A DNA stretch of 64,000 nt from a virus (IMGVR_UViG_3300025718_000006:1916-65915), one strand, 5' to 3'. Shown: positions 26,598 to 27,900, counted from the first letter of the stretch. The notes: generated by a model from the sequence alone, not told the origin. Translations and numbers: made by a program.

Positions 26598-26626
26598 TTG
26601 ACATTCTGTAGTAATTTTCATATAAT
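26598..26626 (+). promoter_or_regulatory. Consensus sigmaA promoter of the par operon
   Basis: TTGACA-17 bp-TATAAT. Confidence 0.85.
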
Positions 26627-26670
26627 ATATTACAAAGCATATATTACAAAGTCATAAATATACTACAAAG
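26625..26670 (+). repeat. Candidate parC centromere/ParR operator
   Basis: ATATATTACAAAG at 26625 and 26639, ATATACTACAAAG at 26658, between the -10 box and the RBS. Confidence 0.65.
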
Positions 26671-26682
26671 GGGCGATATATA

Positions 26683-27585
26683 ATGATAATTGGTTTAGAC
26701 AATGGATTTCAAAACACTAAAACTTCTGAGGGAATTATATTTCCAAGTACAATTAAAACTGGTAAAGATATTGATATAAATAAAGACACTATAAATGTAA
26801 ATATTGATGGTATTGATTATACAGTGGGAGCCGAGGATGGTGAAGGTGTTGCAGATAATAATAAAACAAATTCGTTAGTTACTGAAATATGTACCATTAC
26901 CGCAATTGCTATGAGTTTTCCTGAAAGTACATTTATCGAAGCAGATGTTGTTGCTGGTTTACCTATTGCATTTTATTCTAGTCAGAAAGAAGCTTTCAAA
27001 GAAAAACTATTAAGTTATGGTGTTAAAAGGATTAAAATAGGTGAACATTTTCAAGATATTAAAATAAAAAGTGTTATGGTATATCCTCAAAGTGTTGGTG
27101 TGGCTTTTTTAAATGCTAAAGATATTAAGAATGACGATACATTGATTATTGATATTGGCGGTTCTACTGTAGATATATCTCATTTTGAAGGTATGAAGTT
27201 AATTAATAAAGCTACTTATCCGTTGGGAATGTTGAAACTTTATTCTAATTTAGTCCAAAGGATAGTATCTGAGCATGATGTTAATATTGCAGCTTATCAG
27301 ATGGATAACAAATTACAGAAAGGTTATATTACATCAAAGACAGGTAAAATTGATTTAGGACAGTATGGGAGCGTTATAGATGAACATGTTAGAAAAGTAG
27401 CTAATGCAATCAAAACAGATTTCAAGACACACGACACTATGGATAATACATTTATTATTGGTGGCGGTGGAATAAGATTGTTTGATAAAATTAAACCATT
27501 ATTTAATAACGCTGAACTTATTGATAATGCTCAATTTGTAAATGCTAATGCTTTTAAATATATGGGAGAACTTAAAAGTTTATAG
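26683..27585 (+). CDS. parM: ParM/StbA actin-like partition ATPase
   Basis: IGLDNGFQNTK (phosphate 1), VMVYPQS, IIDIGGSTVD (phosphate 2), IIGGGG (adenosine), FVNANAF. Confidence 0.9.
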   Translation: MIIGLDNGFQNTKTSEGIIFPSTIKTGKDIDINKDTINVNIDGIDYTVGAEDGEGVADNNKTNSLVTEICTITAIAMSFPESTFIEADVVAGLPIAFYSSQKEAFKEKLLSYGVKRIKIGEHFQDIKIKSVMVYPQSVGVAFLNAKDIKNDDTLIIDIGGSTVDISHFEGMKLINKATYPLGMLKLYSNLVQRIVSEHDVNIAAYQMDNKLQKGYITSKTGKIDLGQYGSVIDEHVRKVANAIKTDFKTHDTMDNTFIIGGGGIRLFDKIKPLFNNAELIDNAQFVNANAFKYMGELKSL

Positions 27586-27594
27586 GAGGTAGCT

Positions 27595-27861
27595 ATGGCA
27601 GCTAGTAGAGTTAAATCAGTTAGCTTTAAAGATGATGAAAAGGAATTATTGCAATATTGCGAGGAACAGGGAAACTTTTCAGAGTTTATGAAAAAATTAG
27701 CTTTGGAACGTAAAAACAAAGGATATAAATTTGACAAAGAACAGGAAAAAACAATTATAGAAATGATTAAAAAGTATGCTCCTACTGTTAAGGATGAAGA
27801 TATTAAAAAAGATTTTGATAAAGAGAAATTAGAAGCACTAGGACAATTTGATAATATGTAA
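27595..27861 (+). CDS. parR: ParR-like centromere-binding adaptor (RHH)
   Basis: Directly after parM; KSVSFK strand then helices NFSEFMKKL; acidic C-terminal tail. Confidence 0.7.
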   Translation: MAASRVKSVSFKDDEKELLQYCEEQGNFSEFMKKLALERKNKGYKFDKEQEKTIIEMIKKYAPTVKDEDIKKDFDKEKLEALGQFDNM

Positions 27862-27866
27862 TTTTG

Positions 27867-27900
27867 AAACTCTTACTTAATTGTAGGGGTTTTTCTTATT
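27867..27900 (+). terminator. par operon terminator
   Basis: AAACTCTTAC/GTAGGGGTTT plus T-run. Confidence 0.65.

Follow-up and report, generated by a model that had tools for sequence, protein, structure and literature searches.

The window analysed here is a 64.0 kb stretch of DNA with a GC content of 31%, comprising bases 1916–65915 of a single 65,915 bp virus contig in IMG/VR (IMGVR_UViG_3300025718_000006, hereafter G000). A sequence-only reading had proposed that it carries a complete type II (ParMRC) partition cassette at 26598–27900, and that the element is a phage-plasmid segregated by actin-like filaments. All three parts of such a system, a candidate centromere (parC), an actin-like ATPase (ParM) and a small adaptor (ParR), are present at these positions and look intact. 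They form one insulated transcription unit of approximately 1.35 kb (26543–27893) with delimited promoter, operators and terminators. Since the promoter, repeats, open reading frames (ORFs) and flanking terminators could all be located, the proposed span brackets a single operon. As argued below, the cassette is probably a functional partition locus of a temperate phage that does not integrate. All of its features lie on the plus strand, except one inverted repeat copy.

The operon promoter, TTGACA-17-TATAAT (26598–26626), scores 12/12 and is the only exact occurrence of this consensus in the 64 kb, against a mean of 0.08 in shuffled sequences. It runs into three direct repeats of 14 nt, AATATATTACAAAG (26624–26637), CATATATTACAAAG (26638–26651) and AATATACTACAAAG (26657–26670), with start-to-start spacings of 14 and 19 nt. 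The 13-nt core of these repeats, ATATAYTACAAAG, corresponds to the three 13-bp repeats originally described, and the three copies are its only zero-mismatch matches in the window. The repeats begin inside the −10 hexamer, cover the transcript start and extend to the ribosome-binding site, while an inverted partial copy on the minus strand (26605–26618, with 26607–26618 pairing against 26656–26667) sits in the promoter spacer. Repeats and inverted copy together (26605–26670) overlap the operon promoter, as is characteristic of type II centromeres, and we consider 26624–26670 the candidate parC. Upstream, the cassette is insulated by the intrinsic terminator of the preceding gene (26543–26587), a 19-pair stem followed by a T run (−19.8 kcal/mol, z −4.4). 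The terminator of the parMR operon itself, which had been noted previously, lies at 27866–27893 (−11.8 kcal/mol, z about −4.2). These z-scores compare the folding energy with that of shuffled sequence.

ParM (26683–27585, 300 aa) was compared with Pfam, PDB and NCBIfam and belongs to the ParM/Alp superfamily of actin-fold ATPases, in agreement with the first assignment. Matches to the Pfam families ALP_N (1.1e-18), MreB-like_C (9e-10) and the ParM C-terminal domain (2e-7) all exceed the cut-offs. The best sequence match in the PDB is Alp12 of C. tetani (4.2e-13 over residues 12–288), followed by R1 ParM and two C. botulinum ParMs. Against the R1-type ParM equivalog (NCBIfam NF010498) the protein scores 66.1 bits, compared with a cut-off of 417; it is therefore a superfamily member in a separate subfamily rather than an orthologue of R1 ParM. 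A collection of 5.8 billion proteins yielded approximately 20 close relatives with 50–78% identity, while a peptide-pattern search of IMG/VR found nothing and no record in the contig collection matched this element's ParM exactly. Across 24 aligned homologues, the residues of the phosphate-1 (D6, G8, T12 and K13), phosphate-2 (D157, G159 and G160) and adenosine (G260–G262) motifs are invariant, and this intact set of nucleotide-binding motifs points to an active ATPase.

The parR candidate (27595–27861) encodes an 88-aa protein, identified as the adaptor by its position, structural model and homologue conservation. Its ORF begins 9 nt past the parM stop codon, with which its AGGAGG ribosome-binding site overlaps; parR thus appears to be translationally coupled to parM. 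Searches for a sequence family, using Pfam (with the single protein and with all alignment members), NCBIfam and the PDB (by phmmer and two profiles), gave chance-level matches only. There are 13 close homologues of equal length, each of which adjoins ParM wherever the context is visible. Invariant positions are found at the N-terminus (a K7-S8-x-S10-F11 strand, plus S29 and K33) and at the C-terminus (L82-x-Q84-F85). When 1.84 billion representatives were searched with a profile, 178 relatives emerged, and for most of them the match covers residues 4–45 only.

A first model of ParR, built from a 14-sequence alignment, was discarded (pLDDT 52), whereas an AlphaFold model from a 138-sequence alignment reached a pLDDT of 87. 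The latter has an extended N-terminus (residues 1–12), helices at 13–24 and 28–42 and three more helices, the last of which spans residues 76–86. A Foldseek search of the PDB with this model gave no match. When residues 1–45 were compared using an exhaustive aligner (VIA-align wide), nearly every top match was a ribbon-helix-helix (RHH) protein. The first of these, tied at Z 4.3, was 2q2k_B (rmsd 2.4 Å, 42 of 44 residues), from the ParR–centromere complex of pSK41 (PMC3074162); the others included TacA, ORF56, the RHH domain of PutA, NikR, Arc, ParG, omega and TraM. It is the uniformity of this list, not the height of the Z-scores, that supports an RHH N-terminus, and the model thus supports residues 1–45 as an RHH domain. 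The RHH fold ascribed to ParR at the outset is borne out by the model and its structural matches, without a sequence-family match. On structural and positional grounds, a small predicted RHH adaptor therefore lies directly downstream of parM in the same operon. R1 ParR has a C-terminal tail that binds ParM; by analogy, the C-terminal helix of the present protein (76–86), with its invariant L82, Q84 and F85, may be a ParM-binding tail.

The closest named homologues of the cassette are carried by pCKL555A (NC_009466), a complete circular 59-kb plasmid of the cultured isolate C. kluyveri DSM 555. Its ParM/StbA (WP_011930390) and an 88-aa hypothetical protein (WP_011930389) are 57% and 66% identical, respectively, to the window's pair, with the same gene order and spacing. 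The operator region is also alike: a TTGACA promoter has an inverted copy within its spacer, and its −10 is followed by direct ...AATACAAAG repeats, two in number against the window's three. The plasmid is annotated with tape measure, major tail, head-closure, head-tail connector, holin and GH25 lysin genes, and no integrase is annotated within the 50 kb inspected. A phage genome with this cassette subfamily is therefore known as a plasmid in culture. In other respects the two elements differ: pCKL555A, which encodes a tape measure and a major tail protein, is of siphovirus type and has no structural genes in common with the window phage, whose portal gave no match in a tblastn search against plasmids. 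Downstream of its cassette there is an FtsK/SpoIIIE gene, in place of the type IV coupling protein (T4CP) and MobV relaxase found in the window.

We compared the regions upstream of parM in pCKL555A and in three further contigs, L020 (88 kb), L023 (38 kb) and L024 (18 kb). The −35 hexamer TTGACA and its position are kept in four of the five homologous cassettes, the window's included, while L020 has TTGACT. All four of the other cassettes have an inverted copy in the spacer, then the −10, then two to three direct repeats ending (T/A)ACAAA(G). In L023, the closest relative, there are three copies with the same 14/19-nt spacing and a TACAAAG core, but the other bases differ. Spacing and layout that are kept while the bases change are the pattern expected of a protein-binding site co-evolving with its adaptor.

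These contigs also place the cassette in different genomic settings. L023 belongs to the same lineage as the window and has its gene order: a giant DarA_C/methyltransferase protein, lysin, Rep, ParM, ParR, T4CP, HNH, MobV, CI/Cro and sigma factor. In L020, the same ParM and 88-aa ParR pair stands beside myovirus-type baseplate and sheath-initiator genes. In the region 7420–11187 of that contig, a diversity-generating retroelement (bAvd plus reverse transcriptase) is located approximately 0.9 kb upstream of ParM/ParR, with one opposite-strand gene between them. L024, which has holin and amidase genes, combines three genes in the region 3052–5386: a Xer-like tyrosine recombinase (Phage_int_SAM_1/4 plus Phage_integrase) comes first, followed immediately by a ParM with 63% identity and a ParR of 94 aa; this recombinase may be a multimer-resolution partner. 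A small ParM/ParR subfamily can thus be delimited, which recurs on Clostridium phage genomes of different tail types, pCKL555A among them, and this recurrence suggests that partition modules are exchanged among clostridial phage-plasmids.

Outside the cassette, comparisons with PHROGs and Pfam identified small and large terminase subunits, portal, major head protein, collagen-like tail fibres and a GH25/SH3 endolysin, together with an Erf recombinase, SSB, RusA, a sigma factor and a phage-type replication initiator. The initiator is a phage Rep/DnaD-like protein (Phg_2220_C) encoded at 21093–21989 on the plus strand. A CI/RstR-like repressor (33927–34400) is the only minus-strand gene among those examined. 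It is divergent from a 60-aa Cro-like helix-turn-helix protein on the plus strand (34620–34802), and from this CI/Cro pair the phage can be recognized as temperate. The genome combines genes for virion, packaging and lysis and a lysogeny switch with the maintenance genes Rep and ParMRC, as expected of a phage-plasmid.

Database matches to the region around the cassette were sparse. Megablast of window positions 20000–40000 gave only short module matches to Clostridium plasmids (C. estertheticum, C. botulinum and C. kluyveri) and no match to phages, while tblastn of the portal against phages gave distant matches only (22–27% identity). Through the portal we reached a relative, G002, an IMG/VR contig of 65,392 bp that is collinear with G000 over its whole length, with structural proteins 60–85% identical. 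In gene order one contig is a circular permutation of the other, and each bridges the other's ends: where G000 breaks, G002 is continuous and has fibre genes only; where G002 breaks, G000 is continuous between the portal and scaffold genes. Host chromosome at the flanks would have spoken against a phage-plasmid, but no host genes or host DNA were found at the ends of either contig.

Both ends of G000 (window 63763–64000 and contig positions 1–106) lie inside copies of a recurring domain of approximately 150 aa, which also opens the next fibre gene (contig positions 119–1696). The last 79 codons and the first 35 codons of the contig match residues 1–64 and 119–151 of this domain, so that joining the ends leaves approximately 54 codons (about 160 bp) missing from within one small paralogous-domain gene. 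The simplest reading is that G000 is a circle broken by the assembler within a repeated domain, with a loss of around 160 bp; the location of both ends in copies of that domain would also explain why IMG/VR labels the contig linear. Given the mutual circular permutation and ends that fit together, the genome, of approximately 66 kb, appears to be essentially complete. The unsequenced arc, where the sequence-only reading had recommended a search for an integrase, thus comes down to a gap of about 0.16 kb amid fibre genes, and synteny with G002 together with the fitting ends leaves no room for an integrase there.

We searched the whole 65,915 bp contig in six frames with PF00589, PF00239, PF07508 and PF00665 at E ≤ 1, under which the control genomes were detected. 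G000 gave no match to a tyrosine recombinase, to a serine recombinase (for which two models were used) or to an rve transposase, and G002 likewise gave no match to these four families at this threshold. The absence of tyrosine and serine recombinases, originally noted for the window, thus holds for the full contig and for its relative. No integration module is present in a genome that we take to be complete but for the 0.16-kb gap. A Mu-like transposable phage, considered on account of a weak gpT-like capsid match, was rejected because there is no rve transposase.

The genome had also been called podovirus-like, a plausible description with weak support. Two small proteins encoded after the fibres match the SU10 adaptor family, one of them with 27.1 bits at a cut-off of 27. 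A 509-aa protein lies near Atlas clusters in which 17–37% of members carry the P22-type Phage_stabilise domain, a lead towards a P22 gp10-like hub, and it also matches internal-virion-protein PHROGs. Among the proteins scanned there was no match to a tape measure, tail tube or sheath; several structural proteins carry no assignment, and one of 599 aa found nothing in the protein Atlas.

A complete partition cassette in a genome with no integrase most likely means that the phage persists as a plasmid prophage. We therefore favour the view that the locus is a functional type II (ParMRC-like) partition system and that its carrier, a temperate phage that does not integrate, is a phage-plasmid. This is probable, though short of certain, and the phage-plasmid proposed at the outset is upheld as the best explanation, given the temperate gene set, the lack of an integrase and the homologous cassette on pCKL555A. 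For this cassette we infer DNA binding by ParR, contact between ParR and ParM, filament formation and stabilization of the element. The consensus promoter would drive parM and parR as a single insulated operon. Dimers of ParR, through the N-terminal RHH domain, would bind the three direct repeats and the inverted copy over the −10 and spacer, forming the centromere complex and also repressing the operon. The C-terminal helix of ParR would then capture the ends of ATP-dependent ParM filaments, which would push sister prophage-plasmids apart before division, so that a genome of approximately 66 kb could be inherited without integration.

Several observations weigh against this interpretation. 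At the sequence level nothing connects ParR with a described ParR family, and the Z-scores of its structural matches are low in themselves (4.3 at most), as expected when the matched domain has only 42 residues. The R1 parC has ten iterons, next to which a candidate parC with three or four repeats appears short. The IMG/VR record of G000 is that of a linear virus with a CheckV completeness of 74%. A circular map would also be produced by headful-packaged, terminally redundant virion DNA and so is no proof of a plasmid prophage; the extrachromosomal state of this element is something we infer rather than see directly. Finally, the window genome has no multimer-resolution recombinase, while many plasmid prophages carry a Xer-like one (PMC8026635).

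A further point on this side is that phage actin-like systems can serve lytic DNA transport instead of partition, as AlpAC does (PMC4446434), and this gives rise to the main competing explanation. The actin-like protein and its adaptor might move or anchor replicating phage DNA during lytic growth, as in the Corynebacterium prophage CGP3. The AlpC/AlpA/alpS system of that prophage has the same three-part logic, in which the phage encodes an actin-like protein and an adaptor that binds DNA, and binding sites lie upstream (PMC4446434); the system serves viral DNA replication and transport (PMC4446434, PMC5539076). It has accordingly been cited as an example of why a partition system in a phage is no proof of a plasmid stage (PMC8026635). 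However, CGP3 is a chromosomally integrated prophage whose system acts after induction, whereas the window element has no integration function and neither G000 nor G002 has a recombinase. Moreover, the present cassette is insulated, has operators of its own and a consensus promoter of constitutive type, and stands outside the early and late phage operons, and its closest named homologue is on a plasmid kept in a cultured isolate. We consider a purely AlpAC-like role unlikely, although lytic and partition roles are not mutually exclusive.

Somewhat less probable again is that there is no plasmid prophage at all, either because an integration function went unrecognized or lies in the gap, or because the phage is effectively lytic or pseudolysogenic and the cassette a recently acquired passenger. 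The unclosed contig, with its CheckV estimate, leaves some latitude for this. The ParM encoded at the same genomic position in G002 (contig positions 32508–36350, minus strand 1322–2343 of that segment, L014) is only 29% identical to that of the window, compared with 60–85% for the structural proteins, as expected of a mobile module. This ParM is followed by a 57-aa RHH-like adaptor ending DFDLDF, and the upstream region lacks TACAAAG repeats. It looks as though a partition cassette has been swapped between close relatives, possibly in connection with incompatibility. Against a passenger cassette or a concealed integrase, only fibre genes span the break by synteny with G002 and the ends of G000 fit one small gene; neither genome has a match to the four recombinase and transposase families, and CI/Cro is present. 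The position of the cassette between Rep and the T4CP/MobV genes is, furthermore, kept in three lineage members, which argues for a maintained function.

The genes downstream of the cassette raise one more possibility. A small RHH-like gene, a coupling protein and a relaxase follow parMR at 29095–32356. The VirD4-like coupling protein (T4SS-DNA_transf, 4e-49) is encoded at 29440–30876 and the MobV relaxase, which exceeds the NCBIfam equivalog cut-off, at 31376–32356, both on the plus strand; no mating-pore genes were seen. The linkage ParM–ParR–T4CP–MobV is also found in G002, L023 and L024. One might suppose from the T4CP and relaxase adjoining parMR, and from the Clostridium plasmids that are the closest DNA matches, that the element is a mobilizable plasmid with a defective prophage, its ParMRC serving an ordinary plasmid that no longer makes virions; this we regard as very improbable, as the genes for packaging, head, tail fibres, lysis and regulation all have uninterrupted reading frames, almost all of these genes lie on one strand in a phage order conserved in G002, and the IMG/VR record is that of a virus. 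By comparison, E. coli phage-plasmids have been reported to lack oriTs (PMC10123127). Tentatively, and with the odds rather against it, the lineage of G000, G002 and L023 could be a short-tailed clostridial phage-plasmid with three routes of inheritance (virions, vertical ParMRC segregation and conjugative MobV/VirD4-like mobilization), whose partition cassette is swapped between relatives and possibly escapes incompatibility thereby.

Some further features of the genome deserve mention. Directly after the parR terminator, at 27967–28119, is a 50-aa AbrB/MazE-like gene (SpoVT-AbrB fold) whose stop overlaps the start of an HNH gene; no toxin partner was recognized for it. That HNH gene (28119–29012) is one of at least five genes for HNH-type endonucleases, the others lying at 58371–59279, 53879–54361, 38533–39135 and 21983–22486. 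The portal–scaffold segment that contains the gene at 58371–59279 is approximately 1.9 kb longer than in G002, which has no counterpart gene, consistent with insertion of a homing endonuclease. Between the tail and lysis genes lies an ORF of 3757 aa (6167–17440), whose only Pfam match is a methyltransferase domain at residues 2513–2636. Its counterparts are 3983 aa in L023, where it carries DarA_C too, and 2440 aa in G002; the product is likely to be a polyvalent, DarB-like ejected protein. The phage also encodes a 37-kDa nucleoid-associated protein (NA37, 8e-64; 44042–45094) and its own sigma-70-family factor (41603–42400).

With regard to known systems, phage-plasmids are very common in clostridia (PMC10210947), and Pfeifer et al. 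report that in Bacillus and Clostridia they account for up to half of the phages or plasmids (PMC7969092). A plasmid prophage with actin-like segregation in a non-integrating Firmicute phage is an established concept: ParM with RHH adaptors is the partition system of the Bacillus plasmid prophages IEBH and B83 (PMC8026635). The novelty implied by the sequence-only reading is reduced to that extent; what is new is the ParM/ParR subfamily, and the tail type is probably unusual. The present work contributes a sharply delimited and experimentally tractable ParMRC cassette from a clostridial phage that is uncultured, and such cassettes are useful for stabilizing clostridial vectors and for studying incompatibility among phage-plasmids.

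At the level of individual components, Alp12 of the C. tetani plasmid pE88 (4APW), R1 ParM (1MWK) and the C. botulinum ParMs (7X3H and 7X54) share the actin fold and nucleotide motifs with the window's ParM, but all are distant. For the adaptor and centromere, the nearest parallel is the ParMRC system of the Staphylococcus plasmid pSK41. The modelled adaptor finds its best structural match in the N-terminus of the pSK41 ParR (2Q2K), although sequence identity over the match is 7% and there is no sequence-level match. The pSK41 centromere comprises a few tandem repeats; like the candidate parC it is short and adjoins the promoter, while the sequence and length of the repeats differ. At the level of the whole element, the comparison is with the Bacillus plasmid prophages (the IEBH, vB_BtS_B83 and pBtic235-like groups), temperate phages of Firmicutes that are maintained as plasmids, as is proposed for the window element, by means of an actin-like ATPase, a small adaptor of the RHH type and a putative centromere (PMC8026635). 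They are, however, all sipho- or myoviruses, most with Xer-family recombinases, whereas the window element has no such recombinase and may be short-tailed.

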